Shown one piece after another: positions 1 through 34,123 of a DNA stretch of 35,575 nucleotides (the stretch's first letter is position 1; every line of letters starts with the position of its first letter). The notes under the pieces are model-generated. The model was not told the DNA's origin. It made no database searches and saw nothing but the letters and a program-made list of their open reading frames with translations. The stretch comes from a virus. Lineage: Duplodnaviria; Heunggongvirae; Uroviricota; Caudoviricetes. The stretch is taken from IMG/VR virus record IMGVR_UViG_2579779007_000007; one strand, given 5' to 3'. The translations under genes and the position numbers were made by a program.

Positions 1-21
1 ATGCGAGAGACAGTCGAAATT

Positions 22-351
22 ATGCGTTATCCCGTCACTCTTACACCCGCGCCGGAAGGCGGTTATATGGTTTCTTTTGTGGATATCCCTGAAGCGTTGA
101 CCCAGGGCGAAACTGTCGCTGAAGCGATGGAAGCGGCAAAAGATGCTTTACTGACCGCATTTGATTTTTATTTTGAAGATAACGAGCTTATCCCGTTACC
201 TTCGCCATTAAATAGTCATGATCACTTTATTGAAGTACCTTTGAGCGTCGCCTCTAAGGTATTGCTGTTAAATGCTTTTTTACAGTCAGAAATCACTCAG
301 CAAGAGTTAGCCAGGCGAATTGGCAACCCGAATGTAGTCAACCCAAAATAA
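22..351 (+). CDS. hicB: HicB-family antitoxin, N-terminal domain only; ORF ends after 8 unrelated codons, apparently disrupted by the AT-rich element
   Basis: Translation MRYPVTLTPAPEGGYMVSFVDIPEALTQGETVAEAMEAAKDALL... matches the enterobacterial HicB N-domain as recalled. Start of an Xre-like HTH (ITQQELARRIG) is cut off near nt 331. GC drops from about 50% to about 35% after nt 340. Confidence 0.6.
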   Translation: MRYPVTLTPAPEGGYMVSFVDIPEALTQGETVAEAMEAAKDALLTAFDFYFEDNELIPLPSPLNSHDHFIEVPLSVASKVLLLNAFLQSEITQQELARRIGNPNVVNPK

Positions 352-3248: not shown

Positions 3249-4250
3249 TTAAGCTGCGTATGCGTAGGCGCTGTAGTTGGTGTCGTAGATAGCGTCATGC
3301 AGTGCCATCTGTGCTTCGCGGATCTCGTCTTCGTTTACTTCAATCTCTTCTTGTTCTTCTTCGGTATCTTCCCAAGTGGTTTTGAATTTAGCCATAAAGT
3401 TATTGCGCAGGGATTCAAAGTTAGTAACAGGTGCGGATTTTTCTTCAACCGGAACTACTACCGGATCAGCTTCTTTCTGTTCTTCCTGTTCTACTTTTTC
3501 ACCATTACCCCAGCGATAGTTAAGGAGTTCTTCCAGTTCTTCATCAATGGATTTTTCTTCAACTGCTTCAACTTCAACCGCTGCTACTTCGAAAGTGGTT
3601 TCCTGTGCTGCCAGTTCAGCTTTCAGAGATGCGTTTTCAGCTTCCAGTTCAGCAATGCGTGCTTTCAGTGCTTCAACTTCGGAAGATTCAACCACTGCAA
3701 CTTCTTCTTTAACTTCTTCAACTACTACCGGAGCAACTTCTTTCTGTGCTTCTTTTTTGCAGAAGAAGGAGGAAGTAACCTGTAATGCGTGGTTGTAGAA
3801 GGAACCGCCTTTAGCGGTGTTAACAGTACCAGAAACATCCTTTACAGTGGATTCGGTAGCAACAGTACGGAAGCGTTTTGCGACTTCCTGGGTCTCTACG
3901 CCGTATTCGTTACGCTTGCTCTTGTGATGCATTACAGCACGGAAGCCGGAAGCAGTTTTAACAACAGCCAGATAGTAAGTTTCATCGGCTTTAACAGCAC
4001 GAGCGAAGCAATAAACGGATTCACCTTCTACCAGTGTAGGTTTAACGTGACGTTTGTCGAAACGGTTAGTGATCTGCCATTCAGCACCGTCTTTGATGCC
4101 AGCATTCTGACGCATTTCGGTCAGAGTCTTACCGGATACTACTTCAAAGGATTTGTCTTGTTTGCTTGCTTTACCTTCCATGACGGTAATGTTCAGTTTG
4201 CCGTTGGATTTAATAAACAGGTTGAAGGTGATGCGCTTAGAATTTTTCAT
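3249..4250 (-). CDS. hypothetical protein: N-terminal globular domain, central coiled coil (EALKARIAELEAENASLKAEL), acidic C-terminal region
   Basis: 333 aa ORF with RBS GGAG. Coding-like composition. No family recognised. Confidence 0.6.
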   Translation of the reverse strand: MKNSKRITFNLFIKSNGKLNITVMEGKASKQDKSFEVVSGKTLTEMRQNAGIKDGAEWQITNRFDKRHVKPTLVEGESVYCFARAVKADETYYLAVVKTASGFRAVMHHKSKRNEYGVETQEVAKRFRTVATESTVKDVSGTVNTAKGGSFYNHALQVTSSFFCKKEAQKEVAPVVVEEVKEEVAVVESSEVEALKARIAELEAENASLKAELAAQETTFEVAAVEVEAVEEKSIDEELEELLNYRWGNGEKVEQEEQKEADPVVVPVEEKSAPVTNFESLRNNFMAKFKTTWEDTEEEQEEIEVNEDEIREAQMALHDAIYDTNYSAYAYAA

Positions 4251-4295
4251 TTATAAATACTCCTGAATGCTGTGTTAGTTTTAATTGTTCATATC

Positions 4296-4330
4296 AAAAG
4301 CCTCCTTGCGCCAACAGGGAGGCTTTTTTA
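4296..4330. terminator. bidirectional terminator-like hairpin between the 60-aa and 333-aa genes
   Basis: AAAA-GCCTCC-ttgcgccaacag-GGAGGC-TTTTTT: an A-run before and a T-run after the stem. Confidence 0.4.
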
Positions 4331-4367
4331 TTTTTAAAGCCATCATATAATTCTCAGTGAAAGGTTA

Positions 4368-4550
4368 TTACCAGACCTCGGCGGTAATCTTTACTTTAAT
4401 ATCATACTTCTTTAAGAGTTTGTGGAAGGTTGATTGATCAATACCTTCACCTTTAAACCATTCACCCATCACTACATCAGGTGTCAGTTCAAAATAACGC
4501 TTTGCCATTTCTAAAACGATTTCACGAGTGAACTTAACAGGTCGTGCCAT
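4368..4550 (-). CDS. small HTH DNA-binding protein (60 aa)
   Basis: Strong RBS AGGAGGA. Pattern FTREIVLEMAKRY...GIDQSTFHKLLKKY resembles IS/phage-type HTH. Confidence 0.5.
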   Translation of the reverse strand: MARPVKFTREIVLEMAKRYFELTPDVVMGEWFKGEGIDQSTFHKLLKKYDIKVKITAEVW

Positions 4551-4907
4551 CTTATATCCTCCTAAATCTGGAATAATGATTTCTTAAAAAAGAGCTTTTC
4601 GCTCTGAACAATTCTATTTATAAAATGTTTTTCGAAAAACCCTGTAAAACCACTGTATATCCGATCAGTGGGAGCACGAATTGCTAAAGAGAAGATTAAT
4701 AATTAATCAATTCGTACATTATTCAATCGAATAAGCACTGTATGTTTAGCCAGTTCTGTATGAATTAACAGTGAGTCAGGGGATTTTCAGAAGTGAACAA
4801 TCATTTCATGCATGTATTTATACACGAAAAAATCTTGCGTATCATCAATATGGGGATTGTTTCGAAAATTTCAACCCCTACCAACGAGAAAAAGCATAAA
4901 ATAATCC

Positions 4908-4921
4908 TTGACAGTTGTCAA
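4908..4921. promoter_or_regulatory. palindrome TTGACA-gt-TGTCAA (back-to-back -35-like hexamers or operator)
   Basis: Perfect 6-bp arms. A leftward -10 candidate TATGCT lies 17 bp away on the minus strand, positioned to drive the 4550-to-2991 cassette. Confidence 0.3.
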
Positions 4922-4946
4922 TACACTTGATCTAAGCGAGAAATGA

Positions 4947-4969
4947 CTATCAAAATTTTTGTGTGAAAA
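4947..4969. repeat. direct repeat copy 1: CTATCAAAATTTTTG-TGTGAAAA
   Basis: Near-identical 22-23 bp copy at 5096..5117. A DnaA-box-like TTATCAACC sits between them at 4983..4991. Confidence 0.5.
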
Positions 4970-5095
4970 TGGCGGATAACGATTATCAACCTTTATAACC
5001 TATTATAGCACGGCGACCTTTTGATAATTCTTTTTAAATCATGCATTTACGGCGGTTTTTGGTGATTTTCTGGTTAAATAATATACAAGAATTTT

Positions 5096-5117
5096 CTATC
5101 AAAATTTTTGATGAAAA
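5096..5117. repeat. direct repeat copy 2: CTATCAAAATTTTTG-ATGAAAA
   Basis: See copy 1. This copy directly abuts the iteron array. Confidence 0.5.
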
Positions 5118-5118
5118 A

Positions 5119-5239
5119 CCTACACTACAAACCTACGCTTTAAAGGGATTGGCCTACACTACACTAGCCAGTAAACCTACACTATAACACCCTCAAACCT
5201 ACACTATGAAACCTACACACCTACACTAACCCTACACTT
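5119..5239. repeat. iteron array: about 8 direct copies of CCTACAC(T/G)(A/T) in about 120 bp
   Basis: Copies start at 5119, 5132 (variant), 5153, 5176, 5198, 5212, 5220 and 5231. Several spacings are 21-23 bp. Preceded by an AT-rich tract, inside a 1.27-kb stretch with no ORF of 60 aa or more. Confidence 0.7.
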
Positions 5240-5584
5240 CAATCTCATAAGTGTATGATCTTGAAAGACATTTCACCCCACAGACCATAGAATATAAAAT
5301 TCGAACTAACGTTCTCCTTTTTGCTCGTTTTCTCTCACTACGTTCAAGAAAGATCTCGCAAAAAGAATACGGCGTAGCCGTGCGCGAAGCGCCCATCAAC
5401 ACCTTCTAAGACCTGCAAGCAGGATTCGAAAGGGATTGGATAGTTCGCTTCGCTCACGTTCACGCCTACGGCGTTCACTCGCTTTTGAAAGGATTTTCTT
5501 AGAAAGGGATTTAATACTAGTTACTAACTGATTCTAGTAAACGAACGAAGTGAGTAACAATCACTTTCTAGAAAGGTATTGGTT

Positions 5585-5613
5585 ATCCCTTCGGGATTGC
5601 AACCTTCGGTTGC
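5585..5613 (+). other. two tandem GC-stem hairpins with TTC(G) loops (candidate structured RNA element)
   Basis: ATCCC-ttc-GGGAT immediately followed by GCAACC-ttc-GGTTGC. No clean T-run follows. Confidence 0.35.
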
Positions 5614-5817
5614 TAAATTGCTTCCTGATTATTATTTCTCCAAAAGAAAGATTCTTATATTCTAAAGATACTTCTTCGTTTTGATGATGATTTAATCAAA
5701 CCATGAAGGAGGGCTTTAGCCCGACTGAATACAATCACCTTTCATAATAACAAGAATTTTCTCTTTATAAATAATAGTGAACTTACTTGATTCACTTTCT
5801 TTTAGAGGATTTCCACT

Positions 5818-6285
5818 ATGAACCATAAAATGACTACCACTACTCCTTTTATCCTTCTGGGTCTGGATTCTGATAGCTTCCACAATGACAAGTTAATGAA
5901 GATGTTCCGTGAACGTGGTTATAACATCCTTTTCAACTCTGATGAATCCCATTTCTCTAGTGCATGGTATGCGTTTTACCGTAATAAGAAGCCGACCATT
6001 GTAGTTAACTGCTTCACCGATGAAGAACGCTTAAAGTACCAGGATCTACCAGCAATTATTGTCCGTGATGATCTGCCGTTTCAAGTCCGTTCCGGTGACA
6101 TTGATCTGGGTAGCTTCGTTACTGTCTATGAACTGGATGAAGCAATGTTTAACTACGGCAAAGAAACCGCTCAGGAAGCCCCAGAAGAAGATGAACAAGA
6201 CGAAGATGACGACGACTACGCACCAATCTGTTTTTCTTCTCAGAATGGCTTCTACGGTTACGACGAAGGCTTAGATATGCTGTAA
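5818..6285 (+). CDS. hypothetical acidic protein (155 aa)
   Basis: RBS AGAGGA. N-terminal alpha/beta-like segment (PFILLGLDSDSF...), then a strongly acidic stretch EEDEQDEDDDDY. Confidence 0.55.
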   Translation: MNHKMTTTTPFILLGLDSDSFHNDKLMKMFRERGYNILFNSDESHFSSAWYAFYRNKKPTIVVNCFTDEERLKYQDLPAIIVRDDLPFQVRSGDIDLGSFVTVYELDEAMFNYGKETAQEAPEEDEQDEDDDDYAPICFSSQNGFYGYDEGLDML

Positions 6286-6320
6286 GTTAGGTCAACCCTT
6301 TGGCGTCTTGTCAAGGGGTA

Positions 6321-6349
6321 TTGACAAAAATTTCTGACTTTTTTATGAT
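6321..6349 (+). promoter_or_regulatory. sigma70-like promoter TTGACA-17 bp-TATGAT
   Basis: Consensus -35, 17-bp spacer, 5/6 match at -10. An inverted TTGTCAA lies just upstream (6309..6315). Positioned to drive the 6408 ORF and the Rha gene. Confidence 0.5.
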
Positions 6350-6407
6350 TGTCGCACTTGACAACTTTAAACCTATTTGACCTAGATTTGTAAATGGGAT
6401 GTTAATT

Positions 6408-6554
6408 ATGAACACTACTAAGAAAATTGATGGACGTAAAACCCCGAACCGCAAACCGTGGACCCCAAACCTGAATTTCTCAATGGTTGACTTCCATGAA
6501 CGCCAGCGTCGCATTCAAGAAGAAATTGATCGCGCGATTGCTGAATCTAAATGA
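6408..6554 (+). CDS. small basic protein (48 aa), hypothetical
   Basis: Manual translation MNTTKKIDGRKTPNRKPWTPNLNFSMVDFHERQRRIQEEIDRAIAESK. Its start region resembles the Rha start (ttaattatgaaYact...). Confidence 0.3.
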   Translation: MNTTKKIDGRKTPNRKPWTPNLNFSMVDFHERQRRIQEEIDRAIAESK

Positions 6555-6580
6555 GATAAAAACTTCTTATAAATAAAATT

Positions 6581-6602
6581 GTTCCGGTGATGCTGCCGGA
6601 AC
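6581..6602 (+). promoter_or_regulatory. perfect hairpin GTTCCGG-tgatgctg-CCGGAAC just upstream of the Rha RBS
   Basis: 7-bp perfect stem with no T-run after it, so possibly an attenuator, processing site or protein-binding palindrome. Confidence 0.3.
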
Positions 6603-6651
6603 TAGGAGGATCAATATCATTATCGCAAAACCGTTTAAGGGGAATTTAATT

Positions 6652-7458
6652 ATGAATACTGTTACTGCTATGAATACTACTAAAACCGCTTCCGTGTCTC
6701 TGGTTGTTGATAACACCAAACCGCTGACCATGTCTTCTCGTCAGATCGCTGAATTTACCGGAAAGAAACACTTTCACGTAAAACGCGACATTCGCGAAAT
6801 GCTGATTACCTTAGAATTAGATGAATCCAAATTTGGATGCATCTTTTTTGATCAATATGGACGCGAGCAAACAGAATATCACTTGAATGAAGAACTGACT
6901 CTGACTCTTGTCACTGGTTACAATATCCAGATGCGAAACGCGGTTATTCAGGAATGGAAGCGACTGAAAGAAGAAAATGAAAAACTTCGCTCTACTCCGG
7001 TTAACCCGTATGCAGACTTTGAAGAAACCGACTGGATCGAACTGGCGTTAAAGAAAACTCGCGAGAACAAGCAACTGATTACTCTACATCATCGCAAATC
7101 CGTAGATAGCCATTCAATGACGCGTTTGTTAGGTGCTAAAAAGGGCGCTACGAAGGTTAAAGAAGCACTGACGGCCTTACGTACTGCCGGATACATTGAG
7201 CGCGTCTATGATGAAAATAACAAGCCGTGTGGGTATGTTGCTAATGATTCCGCGATACCGTTTTGCAGCATGAACGCTCACTATCAACTTTCTTTCACTG
7301 TTGATGTGCTTCCGGTGCTGGTTGAATTGGGTGTTCTTGAAGAAGAACAAAAAGCAGCTTTGACACTGCCTAAACCGAATAACACGATCATGATTCAGAA
7401 TAAAGCGACTATCATGATTCGTCAGAATGTTGGATCGCTAGAACACTTCGGACTGTAA
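6652..7458 (+). CDS. rha: Rha-family phage regulatory protein (antirepressor-like)
   Basis: 268 aa. N-terminal SSRQIAEFTGKKHFHVKRDIREM matches the Rha-domain signature. RBS AAGGGG. Confidence 0.7.
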   Translation: MNTVTAMNTTKTASVSLVVDNTKPLTMSSRQIAEFTGKKHFHVKRDIREMLITLELDESKFGCIFFDQYGREQTEYHLNEELTLTLVTGYNIQMRNAVIQEWKRLKEENEKLRSTPVNPYADFEETDWIELALKKTRENKQLITLHHRKSVDSHSMTRLLGAKKGATKVKEALTALRTAGYIERVYDENNKPCGYVANDSAIPFCSMNAHYQLSFTVDVLPVLVELGVLEEEQKAALTLPKPNNTIMIQNKATIMIRQNVGSLEHFGL

Positions 7459-7466
7459 TAATTTTT

Positions 7467-7491
7467 GCCCCTGAATTTCAGGGGCTTTTTT
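7467..7491 (+). terminator. intrinsic terminator after rha
   Basis: GCCCCTGAA-(a)-TTCAGGGGC followed by TTTTTT. Confidence 0.7.
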
Positions 7492-7503
7492 GTATCTGTA
7501 GGT

Positions 7504-7532
7504 ATAAAAAAAGCCAACCCCGAAGGATTGGC
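7504..7532 (-). terminator. intrinsic terminator for the minus-strand 85-aa gene
   Basis: On the minus strand: GGCCAATCC-ttcg-GGGTTGGC followed by seven U. Convergent with the rha terminator. Confidence 0.5.
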
Positions 7533-7540
7533 CTAGAGAA

Positions 7541-7798
7541 TCAAATTCCTGTTGCTTCTACCATTTCACCATCAACCTGAACAAAGAATTTCAAATCAAC
7601 TTTATGAAGGGATTTGTATAGCTGGGCTATGGATAAGCCATGCTCATTTAATACCCGCTCTTTGTTCTCTTTACCTTTCGGTGCTTGATAGTACGCTTTT
7701 ACAATCGCTGCCAGTTGTTCACGATTAAAACGGGCAGGGCGACCGCGAGTAGCTTTAGTAGTCATAGTCATTTTCTCCAAATTAAAGTGAATGTTCAC
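7541..7798 (-). CDS. small DNA-binding protein (85 aa), HTH-like
   Basis: TRGRPARFNREQLAAIVKAYY...GLSIAQLYKSL pattern. Starts 2 nt after the stop of the upstream 201-aa gene. Confidence 0.5.
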   Translation of the reverse strand: MNIHFNLEKMTMTTKATRGRPARFNREQLAAIVKAYYQAPKGKENKERVLNEHGLSIAQLYKSLHKVDLKFFVQVDGEMVEATGI

Positions 7799-7800
7799 CT

Positions 7801-8406
7801 TTATTTAGAGGACTTACATTTTATCGGAAAAAGTTCTCCATCGTCAACCGACATAAAGAACTCTGCCTTAATCCCGTACTTCTTCAACCGTGAATAATAT
7901 GTACCCCGACTAATATCAACCTTGCGCAGCACTTCGAAGAACTCTTTAGGATTCCTGTAATAGTGGCTATATCGCACGTTAGCGAGTTCTACAAACAATT
8001 CCCTTGTATCACCATAGCCTTTCTTGAAAGCCACGTTACGATAGCGTGTAATGGCATGATTCAATCTCTTCTGTTTAAGCACTTCCCTGATCGGCTTCCA
8101 CTGCAACCGATAGATAGGACCGTCATCAATGCGATAATAACGCTTGATATCAAAATCAAACCAATCTCGGACTCTCCGAAACTCTGTATGTGATGTTCTA
8201 TGCTTCTTAAAGAAGTTGTGAACGTCTCTATAGCCATTATCACGGTAAAATTCTATTAAAATCTCTTTCGCTTCCTCACGGCTAAACCCAGATGTTGTGT
8301 AATCGGTCTTTAAGTGCTTATGTTTTACTGGCAAACGATATTCATGATCGGTACAACAAGACAAGGCTAATTCTACTTCATCTCTTTGTTGCTGATTAAT
8401 TAGCAT
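7801..8406 (-). CDS. hypothetical basic protein (201 aa) with C-terminal HTH-like segment
   Basis: Rich in R/K/Y. C-terminal ISRGTYYSRLKKYG is HTH-like. Divergent from the large terminase gene. Confidence 0.55.
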   Translation of the reverse strand: MLINQQQRDEVELALSCCTDHEYRLPVKHKHLKTDYTTSGFSREEAKEILIEFYRDNGYRDVHNFFKKHRTSHTEFRRVRDWFDFDIKRYYRIDDGPIYRLQWKPIREVLKQKRLNHAITRYRNVAFKKGYGDTRELFVELANVRYSHYYRNPKEFFEVLRKVDISRGTYYSRLKKYGIKAEFFMSVDDGELFPIKCKSSK

Positions 8407-8492
8407 ACACCCTCCTTAAATCTTAATACCGTATTTATCAAAATATCAACAATTTAATAAATACCTTCATATTTCGTAATGAGGGTAATTAC

Positions 8493-10400
8493 ATGAAACT
8501 GATTTCTAATAAGGCAAAATTAAAAAAGATTCTCAGAAATGCAGCCAAATATATTACGCCACCGCCTAAACTCCTTCCATCGGAATGGTGCGAAGCGAAT
8601 CTAACGCTAGTCGATGGTCCTCGTGCTGGGGATAAAGTTAAATTGCTGTCATTTCAGAAAGGCATGATTGATGCTCCTTTCCTTGAGAAGAAAAAGAAGT
8701 ACGTTTTTTGTACGAGTGCGCAGATCGGAAAGACGACCATCATGTCAGGGATCATGTTTAACCAGATGGCAAACGATCCGTGTAATATCATTATCGGGCA
8801 AAGTACCGCTAAAGAAGTGGCTATGTACTTGAATACTAAGATCCGTCCTTCTATTGAAGCATGTCCGGCATTACAGGAAGTGGTAACAGATAAGAATGAT
8901 CGTAATGCGGTAAACAACAATAACCAGATTCAGCTAAAAACAAACCATTTCCTTTACATGGTTTCTTTGACCAGTCCTTCAAGTTTGCGCGGGCGTACTG
9001 CCAAGTTAGGGATTGTAGACGAATGCGACGCAGCAACAATCACCGAAGAAGGTTGCCCGGTGGCACTAACTGCAAACCGTTTAACTACCTTTGGTGATGA
9101 AGCTCGATTGATTGTTTCTAGTACCCCGACCAATAAGCTGGGAATCATTAACCAGCAATGGTTATCAAGTGATATGCGTATGTTTTTTGTTCCGTGTCCT
9201 CATTGCGGGGAACACCAGGTGATCGAGTGGGAAAACGTTCAATTTGAATGGCGTAACATTGATGGTAAGAACTTACCCGATCCTGATACCGCTCGTTATA
9301 TTTGCCCCCACTGTAAGAACGCATGGACAGAAGGGGAACGAATCAGGGCAGTAGCGCAAGGCGAGTGGAGAGCAACCCGTGAAAGTGAAGTAGCAGGATT
9401 CTGGATCAGTCGTCTGTATTCACCTTTCAGCACGATCCGCGCTTGTGTGGTTGATTTTAGTCATGCGTGGCAATCCTTTGATTTACAATCCTTTTTTAAC
9501 ACCGTGTTAGGCAAGGTATACGACGATCAGGACACGGCAGTAGAAGCAAATGAACTGGAACAACTCAAAACAGATGTTTCTATCGAGAATATCCCTGATG
9601 ACGTGATTTTCTTGTGTGCGGGTACTGACCAGCAATTAGATCGCGCAGAAACTACGATCATGGGCGTGGCAAAGGATAAGATTTATATTCTGGATCACCG
9701 CAGCTTTTACGATCATAACTGTGAACGATATGAATCACCTGTATGGGATAGATTAATCAACTTCCATAAAACCAAATTTACTACTGTATCGGGTGATCGT
9801 GTTCCTATGCTCGCCAGCTTCCTTGATACATCGAACGGTCGATTCACTCAAGCTGGATACCGTATTTGCGGCAAGTGGAAGAACTTACACGCTATCAAAG
9901 GTAGTTCTGCTGGTAACGCTCCGATCATTCCGGTTAAACCTACCCGCACAGGTGGTCATGAATTGCTTATGCTGGGCGTTAACGTTGGGAAATCCGCTGT
10001 TCGTGAAATGCTGGTTAGAAACCTGAAAGATAATCCTCATATTGGCTTAGAAATATCAGAAACCATTCCTGATGATTATCTCGATCAGCTTTTGAGTGAA
10101 TCCATCAAGCGTACTACTACTGGCGTGCGTTGGGTGAAAAATCCAGGTAGTACCCGAAACGAGGCTCTCGACTGTCTGGTTTATAGCTATGCTGCTTCTC
10201 GCTACGTTCTTTCAAAAATGTCATGGGATAAACTCATTGCAATGAAAGACAGCTTAAACCGTGTTGTCGAAGAATCCGTAGAAGCTCCTAAATCGCAATC
10301 TGACGAGCAAATCGAAGAAAATAAGCCAATCACACGACCACAACGTAAAAACATCGCCAGACGCCCAAATAGAGGCCGTAGCTGGGTAACATCGTTCTAA
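8493..10400 (+). CDS. terL: terminase large subunit, lambda gpA family
   Basis: 635 aa. Recalled gpA-family blocks: [45 protein letters not shown]. Confidence 0.9.
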
Positions 10401-32394: not shown

Positions 32395-34074
32395 TTAAAT
32401 TCCAAATTCTTGTAATGGACCTGGTATTTCTTCTTCTGGTTTCCAGTTCTTATCTGTCAGCATGTCTAAACATGGATGCAGAACAAGCCCGTTACTCTCC
32501 AGAATCTGCCTATCATTGATAGTCTTCAAATCAACGAAGATCCGGCCTTTCCTCGGTCCTCTTGAATTTTCTATTACAACTCTCTGGGTCTTGCCATCGA
32601 TGTATTCCAGTACAAACAAGTTTTTGTACTTGTCAATCCTGCTACACCCGATCCGTTTTAGAGCTTGCTTAATCTTAAACCGGACCTTAATGCGATCCTC
32701 GTTGTAAACATCTTCTAAATCAAATTCTGCGAGCTTCTCCCAGCCTTGAGAGTCAACAGAATACATTTCCTCTTCTGCCATCTTAAGTTGATTGTAGAGT
32801 GTTTCACGCTCGCTATTGAGGGTAGTAATCTGATCGGCTAGCTCCTTCGTTGCTCCTGTCATAGCAGAAAGGGTAATCAGGTTATCAATCTTGCGTGATA
32901 TTTCATCAATCTGTACTTTCAAAGCCGGAACCGGATTAGCCTTATCTTCAGCAATCCAGATTTTATCAGCCAGCAATTGCAATACAGCTTTCTCTAATTG
33001 GTCGCCGCGAAAACTCCAGTTTGTATGCACACATTCAATACGACTAGAGCGCATTGCATCGCATGAATAACGATATTGGTTAGGCCGTCTGTTTGTTCCT
33101 TTCACCTTAACCATAGCGGAACCGCAATGTTCACATTTCAATAGACCAACACCACTAAGCAAGGGAATAGGTTTAGCTTCTTCTTTGTCTCCAAAGTTAC
33201 ATGCTCTAACACCAATGCTTTTCTTAAGGTGATAAAACTCAGCGTCATCTAGCACACGAGGATAATAATCCTTTAACTCATACTTAACGCCATCTACAGA
33301 GATTTCCTTGATACCAATCAAAGCGCGGGTATGGAACAACCTTTCAATCATTGCCCGTGACCAGTTTGAATGCCTCTTGTGACTTGCGGCTGGTGGTGGT
33401 GTGTATGTCGCGTTAAGGTGATCCAGTATCTCGGCGGTTGACCGTCCATTCCTGCGTAATTCCACAACTTCCTGAACAATAGGGAAGAAGACCGGATGAG
33501 GAAGCACATAACCAGATGTGGTATCAGTCCACCACATATTCTTTCCAATTTCCTCGATTGCAACAGCCGGATTTTGTGGATTTTCTTGATGAGCTTTAAT
33601 CTTAATCAGTGCGCTTGAGTTAGTACGATTGCGCTTAGTCTGGCTTTCCTCATTACCACGGATGAATAAAAGGATGGAGAACATCAGGTCCATCGGGTTA
33701 GCGGTAACAGTATCAAGCGAGTAGATCTTGTTATCCATGCCAGTAACAATGGTTATCCCCCTACGGATGATTGAAAGGAATAACTCCTGCGCACTGACAA
33801 TATCGGCACGGGATAAACGGTCCAAGTTTTCGATGAATAGCCAGCTACCAACAGGAACGGATCTACCTATTGCATCAAGGAAACGAGATAGCGCCCCTGT
33901 TTTGGAGTTAGCACCCTTAAACGCAGATACACCCAGATCCTGATAATCATTTACCAGTTCAAGGTCATACTTTACCGCAATCTCTCTAGCCATCCTGATT
34001 TGTCGTTCATAACTCGAACCATCATTCTGACGCATAGACGAGAAGCGAATATACGAATACAGTTTAGTTTTCAT
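32395..34074 (-). CDS. large serine recombinase (candidate integrase)
   Basis: About 560 aa. N-terminal resolvase-type motif YIRFSSMRQ, recombinase domain, zinc-ribbon cysteines (CEHCGSAM...YRYSC), C-terminal coiled coil. ATG start at 34074; the ORF track uses a TTG at 34089. Confidence 0.85.
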   Translation of the reverse strand: MKTKLYSYIRFSSMRQNDGSSYERQIRMAREIAVKYDLELVNDYQDLGVSAFKGANSKTGALSRFLDAIGRSVPVGSWLFIENLDRLSRADIVSAQELFLSIIRRGITIVTGMDNKIYSLDTVTANPMDLMFSILLFIRGNEESQTKRNRTNSSALIKIKAHQENPQNPAVAIEEIGKNMWWTDTTSGYVLPHPVFFPIVQEVVELRRNGRSTAEILDHLNATYTPPPAASHKRHSNWSRAMIERLFHTRALIGIKEISVDGVKYELKDYYPRVLDDAEFYHLKKSIGVRACNFGDKEEAKPIPLLSGVGLLKCEHCGSAMVKVKGTNRRPNQYRYSCDAMRSSRIECVHTNWSFRGDQLEKAVLQLLADKIWIAEDKANPVPALKVQIDEISRKIDNLITLSAMTGATKELADQITTLNSERETLYNQLKMAEEEMYSVDSQGWEKLAEFDLEDVYNEDRIKVRFKIKQALKRIGCSRIDKYKNLFVLEYIDGKTQRVVIENSRGPRKGRIFVDLKTINDRQILESNGLVLHPCLDMLTDKNWKPEEEIPGPLQEFGI

Positions 34075-34081
34075 ACCATTT

Positions 34082-34123
34082 CCAAACAAAAACGCCCCTA
34101 CCGCGTATTATAACGATAGGGGC
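34082..34123 (-). terminator. minus-strand terminator upstream of the recombinase
   Basis: On the minus strand: GCCCCTATCG-loop-CGGTAGGGGC followed by GUUUUUGUUUGG. The loop contains TATAAT. Confidence 0.4.

Follow-up and report, generated by a model that had tools for sequence, protein, structure and literature searches.

A probable early promoter-operator region ahead of a Rha-family gene in an uncharacterised family of enterobacterial prophages

What is controlled by a near-consensus promoter that is surrounded by further copies of its own -35 hexamer and stands in front of a gene for a Rha-family protein? The question is posed by IMG/VR virus record IMGVR_UViG_2579779007_000007, a stretch of 35,575 nucleotides (nt) from a member of the Caudoviricetes, referred to here at its full length as the window, in which a rightward promoter, P_R, precedes a small open reading frame (ORF) of 48 amino acids (aa) and the gene rha. 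A sequence-only reading of this DNA had proposed a tightly regulated switch of the antirepressor type. On the evidence assembled here the P_R region is a credible control region, and nothing shows it to be an antirepressor switch; it is probably the rightward early promoter-operator of a prophage family, the TTGAC-type hexamers of which would serve as operators for a phage regulator.

An exact-protein look-up, together with the E. coli genome collection, identified the whole window as a complete prophage of about 35 kb, inserted between the two halves of the antitoxin gene hicB of E. coli. It belongs to a family of uncharacterised temperate prophages of E. coli, Shigella and Salmonella, whose members are about 90% identical overall. 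The set used for comparison comprised 21 related IMG/VR loci (L001-L021), three Salmonella loci and one more distant locus (L079).

Read directly from the plus strand, P_R consists of a -35 hexamer, TTGACA (6321-6326), a 17-nt spacer and a -10 hexamer, TATGAT (6344-6349). It is the best promoter match in the region (11/12) and has the attributes of a sigma-70 promoter, namely hexamers spaced by 16-18 nt, an intergenic position, 59 nt 5' of the first start codon, and an orientation facing the genes; its transcripts would start at about 6356-6357. The near-consensus promoter that had been described from the letters is accordingly present, conserved, and in the right place and orientation. In the window as a whole, promoter-like hexamer pairs matching at 10 or more of 12 positions are depleted, with 7 found versus about 15 in composition-matched shuffles.

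The region is kept in 20 of the 21 IMG/VR relatives, the exception being a deletion derivative, L004. The -10 of the Salmonella and L079 relatives reads TGATAGCAT or TGCTATCAT, an extended -10, so that promoter potential is preserved there as well. Over 20 distinct sequences, the six hexamers counted in the footprint (GGTCAA 6290-6295, TGTCAA 6309-6314, TTGACA 6321-6326, TATGAT 6344-6349, TTGACA 6358-6363 and TTGACC 6377-6382) vary at one of 36 positions, as against 42 of the 74 other intergenic positions (Fisher p 5e-9). Because the hexamers are conserved while the spacers between them vary among relatives, we take this comparative footprint as good evidence that the promoter and the hexamers are functional. 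In L004 (3500-4010), P_R has been deleted and the 5' part of the upstream gene for a 155-aa protein is joined to a 59-aa cassette at a CGTGAACGTG microhomology, the product being a fusion ORF directly 5' of rha and of the conserved box that precedes it.

How are the hexamers organised? The inverted repeat that had been reported to overlap the promoter is made up of TTGTCAA (6308-6314), 6 bases and TTGACAA (6321-6327), and the further TTGACA that had been placed just 3' of the promoter is found at 6358-6363, within a third TTGACAA (6358-6364). TTGACAA as such is not over-represented in the window (7 found versus 7.9 expected). The presence of five TTGAC[AC] hexamers inside 100 nt has a probability of about 1.5e-4, and the exact pattern TTGAC[AC]-N13-TTGAC[AC] occurs in two copies, inverted relative to each other, where the chance expectation is estimated at about 0.02 per window. 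Both copies are exact matches to TTGACA-N13-TTGACC: unit U1, TTGACAAGACGCCAAAGGGTTGACC, lies on the minus strand at 6290-6314, about -66 to -42 from the presumed start, and unit U2, TTGACAACTTTAAACCTATTTGACC, on the plus strand at 6358-6382, about +2 to +26. Both hexamers of U1 are invariant in the 20 distinct E. coli-type sequences as well as in Salmonella and L079, with a variable 13-nt spacer, and U2 likewise has invariant hexamers and a variable spacer in the E. coli-type sequences. In the Salmonella type U2 retains its proximal TTGACA, and its distal site takes the form of an inverted GGTCAA that overlies the ribosome-binding site; in Salmonella and L079 alike, neither the first three hexamers nor the TTGACA at +2 have changed, despite differing spacers. 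A sixth half-site, TTGTCG at 6349-6354, was considered and rejected, as it reads TTATCG in most relatives.

These relationships bear on the proposed palindrome, the left arm of which is the proximal hexamer of U1. The gap from TGTCAA to the -35 hexamer is 6 nt in most relatives and 7 nt in L005, L015 and Salmonella, while the gap from GGTCAA (6290-6295) to TGTCAA is constant in all of them. Since only the upstream gap is fixed, the left arm TTGTCAA pairs with the upstream hexamer and not with the -35. The sequence TTGTCAA-N6-TTGACAA is thus there as described, and is better read as the -35 hexamer standing beside one arm of a bipartite unit, TTGACA-N13-TTGACC, its left arm belonging to U1.

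The same hexamers recur 1.4 kb to the left, at a divergent promoter, P_L (4893-4921, minus strand), which promoter scanning and comparison place at TTGACA-17-TATGCT, with TATACT in most relatives. A pattern search found a one-mismatch copy of the unit, U3, TTGACAGTTGTCAATACACTTGATC (4908-4932, plus strand), overlapping P_L; its distal hexamer is TTGACC in L012, L019 and L021, which makes the unit exact in these three. Within U3 a palindrome, TTGAC-N4-GTCAA, overlaps the -35 and spacer of P_L, and across E. coli, Salmonella and L079 its arms are kept while its centre varies (AACT, AAGT, ATGT, GGCT, ACCA). P_L and P_R also have a layout in common, GGGGTAT-TTGACA-N31-TTGACA. The sequence-only reading had regarded the palindromes at 4908 and 6309 as operator-like. 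Conserved -35-like hexamers do stand at both promoters, but the geometry is opposite, head to head at 4908 (TTGAC-N4-GTCAA) and tail to tail at 6309 (GTCAA-N7/8-TTGAC), so that these are not two copies of one palindromic operator. What the hexamers do show is a motif repeated at the promoters that would be regulated and more conserved than its surroundings, as expected of repressor operators, and we infer that they act as such.

The hexamers might instead be sites for a host factor of the FNR/CRP family, or extra -35-like hexamers that recruit or trap RNA polymerase. They do equal the sigma-70 -35 consensus, the P_L palindrome has an FNR-like geometry, and no phage repressor has been identified. 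The site consensus of the FNR/CRP family, however, is TTGAT-N4-ATCAA, from which the half-site differs at its fifth position, and the arrangement at P_R is tail to tail or direct, which is not FNR-like. Nor does any extra hexamer have a usable -10 at 16-18 nt, as judged by eye from the promoter scan. Immunity operators are classically recognised by a motif shared between two divergent early promoters, and the hexamer set common to P_R and P_L fits that signature; we therefore consider the host-factor or polymerase explanation very unlikely.

If the region is an early promoter-operator, P_R and P_L would be shut together by one phage-encoded regulator acting like the immunity repressors of the lambda or P2 type: at P_R it would bind the DNA that flanks the polymerase site on either side, and at P_L it would cover the -35. 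The best candidates for such a regulator would be a conserved 201-aa tandem-repeat protein, its small paralogues, or the conserved C-terminal half of Rha. A weak domain of about 55 aa is common to the 201-aa protein (8406-7801), which has two copies of it, and to two smaller proteins of 60 aa (4550-4368) and 85 aa (7798-7541), all three encoded on the minus strand; this paralogous-domain family is an orphan, its 36 clusters coming from E. coli, Salmonella and Proteus. No other early protein is as well conserved as the 201-aa one, at 87-98% in the E. coli relatives. Its confident AlphaFold2 model (predicted local distance difference test, pLDDT, 75) has two repeats of three helices and a beta hairpin. 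It gave no family match, no Foldseek match in PDB or BFVD and no match among INPHARED proteins. From the predicted secondary structure and the weak repeat it appears helix-turn-helix-like, and, more speculatively, a protein of tandem domains would suit half-sites arranged as direct repeats.

What, then, is Rha? The gene rha (6652-7458, plus strand; alternative start at 6670) encodes 268 aa; a pRha winged helix occupies about residues 27-110 in the N-terminal part, and the C-terminal domain is an orphan. The family identity that had been proposed for its product holds: the match to Pfam PF09669 (Phage_pRha) scores 49.1 bits (cut-off 29.9; E 8.9e-13) and covers residues 27-106 and profile positions 1-90 of 91. 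Against NCBIfam TIGR02681 (phage_pRha) the score is 33.4 bits, below the cut-off of 45.95, making it a divergent member at the domain level only. PHROG matches span about residues 5-151 only (best E 6e-19), none of them reaching the C-terminal 117 residues. In the AlphaFold2 model (mean pLDDT 66) the N domain stands at 75-90, and a second helix-helix-strand-strand element is seen at 153-197. For the C-terminal domain a PDB sequence search returned only noise and Foldseek a best E of 0.1, all hits being generic winged-helix proteins; homologues of this domain amount to 9 cluster representatives among 1.8 billion.

Among L001-L021 the N-terminal winged helix of Rha (about residues 27-105) has been exchanged among at least five types and the C-terminal domain among two, while the first 26 residues and the flanks are invariant and the carrier prophages are otherwise about 90% identical. 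No nearby cis element was found to covary with the N-domain type among the iterons, the late-operon intergenic region and P_R. Binding of Rha to the iterons was rejected, iteron type (A or B) being independent of N-domain type, and an action at the late-operon intergenic region is unsupported, that region being invariant across Rha types. Rha is probably a DNA-binding regulator made early from P_R.

The antirepressor proposal finds its nearest model in immI of phage P22, which has the order Pant-arc-ant with operators for Mnt and Arc. By analogy, the small basic ORF would encode an autorepressor resembling Arc, with the palindromes as its operators, and Rha would inactivate the prophage repressor. 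The gene order here, with a strong promoter, a basic ORF of about 50 aa and a protein labelled 'Ant', resembles that arrangement; the PHROG families closest to Rha carry the name 'anti-repressor', and the segment PNLNFSM of the 48-aa ORF is, by eye, loosely like the beta-strand PQFNLRW of Arc. The label, however, rests only on family names that attach to the N-terminal DNA-binding domain, to which the Pfam and PHROG matches are limited. Pfam finds nothing in Rha apart from pRha, and searches of Pfam and PHROG gave no ANT (PF03374), KilA-C or P22 Ant-like domain. The 48-aa ORF has no match to the ribbon-helix-helix (RHH) family of Arc and MetJ even at E up to 1, nor to any other family, and it is swapped for unrelated 59-aa or 110-aa ORFs while the operators stay identical. 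No CI-like repressor was found as a target, and none of the neighbouring 60-, 85-, 155-, 201- and 333-aa proteins covaries with the N-domain type of Rha, as one member of an antirepressor-repressor pair should. An antirepressor under SOS control would have a LexA box at its own promoter; the LexA motif CTGT-N8-ACAG has no match in 6250-6660, and SOS-type boxes occur at P_L, not at P_R. A switch of the P22 type is hence quite unlikely, and the proposed antirepressor function is left unsupported, with neither a partner repressor, nor a covarying neighbour, nor a LexA box at P_R.

The small first gene of the operon behaves as a cassette. The 48-aa basic ORF (6408-6554, plus strand; net charge about +4) is annotated in RefSeq, is intact in 9 sequence variants, and differs from the L003 version by 7 synonymous and 6 non-synonymous codon changes (alignment counted by eye). 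A 57-aa Salmonella ORF has a C-terminal motif in common with it, VDFxERQRRIxE[DE]IDR, while other relatives have the 59-aa or 110-aa ORF instead, between an identical upstream leader and downstream box; in total this position is occupied by at least four unrelated or half-related small ORFs. The 48-aa ORF is coding, to judge by these comparisons, and an exchangeable cassette. As one of at least four interchangeable cassettes it is no integral part of a switch: the promoter that had been said to drive this ORF and then rha does precede both in fitting order and orientation, with a first gene that can be replaced. The duplication of the rha start in the start region of the ORF, also noted earlier, is real but modest, 6393-6416 and 6637-6660 matching at 20 of 24 nt. 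ATGAAYACT occurs three times (6408, 6652 and 6670), since the start of rha consists of an 18-nt tandem duplication of its own, which some relatives have in single copy.

Such a cassette position invites comparison with the acr-aca operons, in which small anti-CRISPR genes lie 5' of a conserved aca regulator gene (PMC8633003). On this model P_R would fire on entry, the first gene would serve anti-defence or host takeover, and a winged helix in the C-terminal part of Rha would shut P_R through the TTGAC repeats. The architecture fits the published description of these operons (PMC8633003, PMC6765145), the cassettes at one position are several and unrelated or half-related, the operators are invariant and the Rha C-domain is conserved, and a second winged-helix-like element is predicted in that domain. 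No cassette, however, matches any known family (the 48-aa ORF has neither a Pfam nor a PHROG match), the Rha model is of only moderate confidence with no significant fold match, and Rha is not mentioned in a 2026 survey of Aca families. The recurrence of the hexamers at P_L, moreover, suggests a genome-wide early regulator rather than a local autoregulator. We regard an autoregulated operon of this type as unlikely. The same low standing applies to its boldest form, in which Rha, in a lineage without CI, would be the autorepressor of an entry-phase cassette operon: its orphan C-terminal winged helix would read TTGACA-N13-TTGACC operators that embed the -35 consensus, the first genes of 48-110 aa would be new anti-defence or host-takeover proteins, and the swapped N-domain would be a second, diversifying module for recognising DNA or a target.

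Between cassette and rha lies a further conserved element. The R box, AAAAACTTCTTATAAATAAAATTGTTC (6558-6584, plus strand), is AT-rich, directly follows the cassette stop codon and is present in all relatives regardless of cassette. It is identical at 24 of 27 positions to a minus-strand copy at 4632-4606, and its 18-mer occurs twice in the window versus 0.31 times expected. The 18-mer is confined to this prophage family, other IMG/VR matches being chance occurrences in AT-rich phages. The perfect hairpin that had been noted here is present as stated, folding into a 7-bp stem of GTTCCGG (6581-6587) and CCGGAAC (6596-6602) around an 8-nt loop, with a free energy of -13.1 kcal/mol (z -2.8). The relatives carry four stem variants in all, GTTCCGG/CCGGAAC, CCGCGCGCC/GGCGTGTGG, GTGTCC/GGACAC and GTACCGAT/ATCGGTAC, every one stable (-13 to -21 kcal/mol, z -2.8 to -4.8) with varying loops. 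The second of them uses G-U pairs and reaches -21.1 kcal/mol in the sense strand versus -9.8 in the antisense strand.

As an intrinsic terminator the R hairpin was rejected: the stem is followed by TAGGAGGATC, and none of the four variants has a T-run. A terminator scan lists it on the minus strand only, and pairing through G-U, which is possible in the sense strand alone, speaks against a terminator for the opposite strand. The comparison of variants thus identifies the R hairpin as a sense-RNA structure and not a terminator.

Box and hairpin form a module with three copies in the window, before rha, before the 60-aa gene and before the gene for the 155-aa protein (5818-6285). The L copy (4585-4632, minus strand), in the P_L leader, consists of a box, the hairpin AGAGC-GAAAA-GCTCT and T6; its stem variant AGGGC/GCTCT still pairs, through G-U, and B-type relatives have GAGCG/CGCTC followed by T7. 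The M copy (5765-5796, plus strand) has a degenerate box, TTATAAATAATAGTGAAC, with 4 mismatches to the 18-mer (13 of 18 positions identical to the R box in our own alignment), and a hairpin not significant alone (z -0.7), followed by TTTCTTTT.

A canonical sigma-70 promoter within the box is unlikely because its invariant core is only ATAAATA, no -35 is conserved, and the variants TCATAAATAAAAATG and TAGAAG lack the hexamer that best resembles a -10 (TAAAAT or TAGAAT). Because the hairpins differ between copies and the R loops are not conserved, the module is not a nut site of the lambda type. Three further candidates were rejected: boxA (about 8 of 13 positions, aligned by eye), an integron attC-like site (core sites in the wrong order and no IntI, by eye), and a hidden ORF with the AGGAGG after the hairpin as its ribosome-binding site, which has no start codon, is closed by stop codons in L004 and lacks the motif in Salmonella. 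We suggest, with low confidence, that the R box-hairpin is an intercistronic element of stability or processing, combining an AU-rich single strand with a stem-loop. The stem-loop would act in the mRNA, where it would most likely determine how stable the cassette and rha segments are relative to each other, or how they are processed, and would not cause termination. The main alternative is an activator-dependent internal promoter whose transcripts start with a 5' hairpin.

Several considerations weigh against the reading of the region as an early promoter-operator with its associated RNA element. In shuffled windows 11/12 promoter matches number 1.2 on average, with at least one in 71%, so that a match of the quality of P_R is expected by chance about once per window; P_R is genuine by its position and conservation, not by rarity for its composition. 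U1 and U2 flank the -35 and -10 without overlapping them, which is not the commonest layout for a repressor, and the notion of a bipartite unit may over-read independent hexamers, because the distal half of U2 sits elsewhere in the Salmonella type. No candidate regulator has a recognised DNA-binding family or a fold match. As to the box-hairpin modules, the L and M hairpins are weak, and the conservation of the box may in part reflect shared ancestry in a family about 90% identical overall.

The leader of P_L carries signals of its own. An exact LexA-type box, CTGT-N8-ACAG, lies at 4756-4771, the only intergenic match to this motif, with one-mismatch copies at 4738-4753 and 4653-4668; in the relatives, including Salmonella, where two are exact, the arms are kept while the spacers vary. 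The boxes suggest that the leftward unit, comprising the 60-aa gene and what lies beyond it, is under direct SOS control, and DNA damage, if it acts directly on the prophage, would on this pattern act on that unit and not on rha. The same leader contains a boxA-like sequence, TTCTCTTTAGCAA (4693-4681, minus strand), which in one Salmonella relative reads GCTCTTTAGCAA and there differs at a single position from the final 12 bases of the rrn boxA consensus, and, 8 nt after it, a hairpin, CCACTG-N10-CAGTGG (4668-4647). Together they make up an invariant block 5' of the L terminator that could be a nut-like or rrn-like antitermination site; the antitermination and LexA readings compete, because the CCACTG hairpin overlaps one of the LexA-like boxes.

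Between the divergent promoters extends a 1.27-kb non-coding stretch (4551-5817) that bears iterons: five to six copies of AAACCTACACTA (5116-5242), three of TTNGAAAGGGATTNNATA (5425-5585) and two of AGAAWTNNCTATCAAAATTTTTG (4939 and 5088). Many relatives carry about 8 copies of TTTTTGCCCCTGAA(A) in their place. In a small sample, iteron type goes with the version of the 60-aa gene, type A accompanying v1 and v3 and type B accompanying v2, and not with the Rha type; the stretch is probably a replication origin with its specificity protein. The 155-aa protein encoded next to it, also between the early promoters, occurs in two variants among the relatives and has no family match. Its N-terminal part is predicted, by eye, to be beta-alpha-beta, and its tail (EEDEQDEDDDDY...) is very acidic; it could be a DNA mimic or a protein with a tail like that of single-stranded-DNA-binding protein (SSB).

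The two-gene operon of cassette and rha ends at a strong intrinsic terminator, GCCCCTGAATTTCAGGGGC (7467-7485) followed by TTTTTTGT (7467-7493 in all, plus strand), and the 201-aa and 85-aa ORFs form a convergent minus-strand operon with its end at 7534-7511. In the rha terminator, GCCCCTGAATTTCAGGGGC, the type-B iteron sequence is present as an inverted pair, and a related palindrome, ACCCTGAAATTCAGGTT, lies inside the box-hairpin loop of the distant relative L079. Sites of this terminator/iteron palindrome (7467-7485 in the window, 2341-2520 in L008 and about 3410-3440 in L079) suggest a small mobile or reused palindromic element.

As for the prophage as a whole, those of E. coli strains CE0007a (NZ_CP119011.1) and H2 (NZ_CP028733.1) are 99.9% identical to the window, 58 of 5,426 complete E. 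coli genomes, DEC5A and ETEC isolates among them, carry a relative, and Rha homologues were found in Shigella, Salmonella and other Escherichia species. A DNA comparison with the 50,697 deposited phages of INPHARED gave no near match, the closest isolated phage at the protein level having a large terminase and capsid of at most 43% identity, and two scans of GTDB representative genomes found no relative. The literature yielded nothing specific on this prophage, on insertion in hicB or on a defined mechanism for Rha. The prophage carries genes for a large serine integrase (32395-34089) and a gpA-type large terminase (8493-10400), as well as tail and lysis genes; searches with Pfam, PHROGs and NCBIfam revealed no recognisable CI, Cro, Q, N or replication protein in it. 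A search of Rfam found nothing at gathering score anywhere in the window; within 4200-8600 nothing appeared even at E up to 1. A 184-aa protein (1722-2276) has an acidic tail and an N-terminus resembling Nu1, with a weak PHROG match to the small terminase (E 1.5e-11), its gene lying 6 kb away from that of the large terminase, across the early region. At the insertion site (window 1-351 and host flank beyond 35575) the hicA toxin gene is intact and HicB is truncated, keeping its N-terminal part and losing its C-terminus; integration may thereby alter hicAB toxin-antitoxin regulation.

The locus matters because the family occurs in about 1% of complete E. coli genomes and in many Salmonella genomes, and none of its regulators is recognisable by homology. 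A precise, conserved map of hexamers at P_R and P_L offers a direct handle for finding the immunity repressor, the P_R region gives entry to the function of the Rha family, which is very common among phages, and the exchangeable gene that comes first after this strong early promoter is a sensible target in a search for new anti-defence genes. Current ideas are not overturned: this is a familiar early-promoter/operator theme in a new version, in an unstudied and fairly common enterobacterial prophage.

How does the region compare with known systems? With lambda immunity it shares divergent early promoters, here 1.4 kb apart, that carry the same short motif, a small first gene on the right, and a layout suggestive of one repressor; unlike lambda, it has no homologue of CI, Cro or N, it has 6-bp TTGAC[AC] direct pairs 19 bp apart and one 14-bp palindrome in place of three tandem 17-bp palindromes, and iterons and an acidic 155-aa protein, not a repressor gene, lie between the promoters. 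The lambda nut sites consist of boxA and a boxB hairpin 3' of pL and pR; here too a linear box is followed by a hairpin in both early transcripts, the right copy after the first gene, but the hairpins differ completely, their loops are unconserved, the box is not boxA-like (a better boxA-like sequence stands at 4693-4681) and no N-like protein is found. The operator of the phage P2 C repressor consists of a pair of direct repeats that lie around the early promoter and are separated by about two helical turns. The likeness lies in direct-repeat halves about 19-22 bp apart around the core promoter, without a palindrome, whereas the sequence is unrelated, two inverted pairs flank the core promoter here, and no P2 C-like protein was found.

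To P22 immI the resemblance consists in a strong promoter, a basic ORF of roughly 50 aa and a larger protein that databases label an antirepressor. The small ORF here, however, is exchangeable and without an RHH signature, the C-terminal domain of Rha is unrelated to P22 Ant, and no mnt gene or antisense sar-like element was seen. The operators of Aca regulators are inverted repeats in a strong promoter, and the present region likewise combines repeats at a strong early promoter with small, variable genes 5' of a conserved gene for a DNA-binding regulator. Aca2 is an autoregulator that represses anti-CRISPR transcription (PMC6765145); in the window no known Acr or Aca family is represented, the regulator is a two-domain protein of the Rha family, and the repeats occur at a second promoter too. 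With the Rha proteins of phi80 and P22 (PF09669) the N-terminal domain is homologous, although here it is swapped, and the C-terminal 160 residues form an orphan domain almost restricted to this prophage family. Among the known classes compared, membership in the Rha domain family is the only one that the locus can claim; it bears a superficial likeness to P22 immI and the acr-aca operons, has the defining features of none of these systems, and probably works like an early promoter-operator of the lambda or P2 type.

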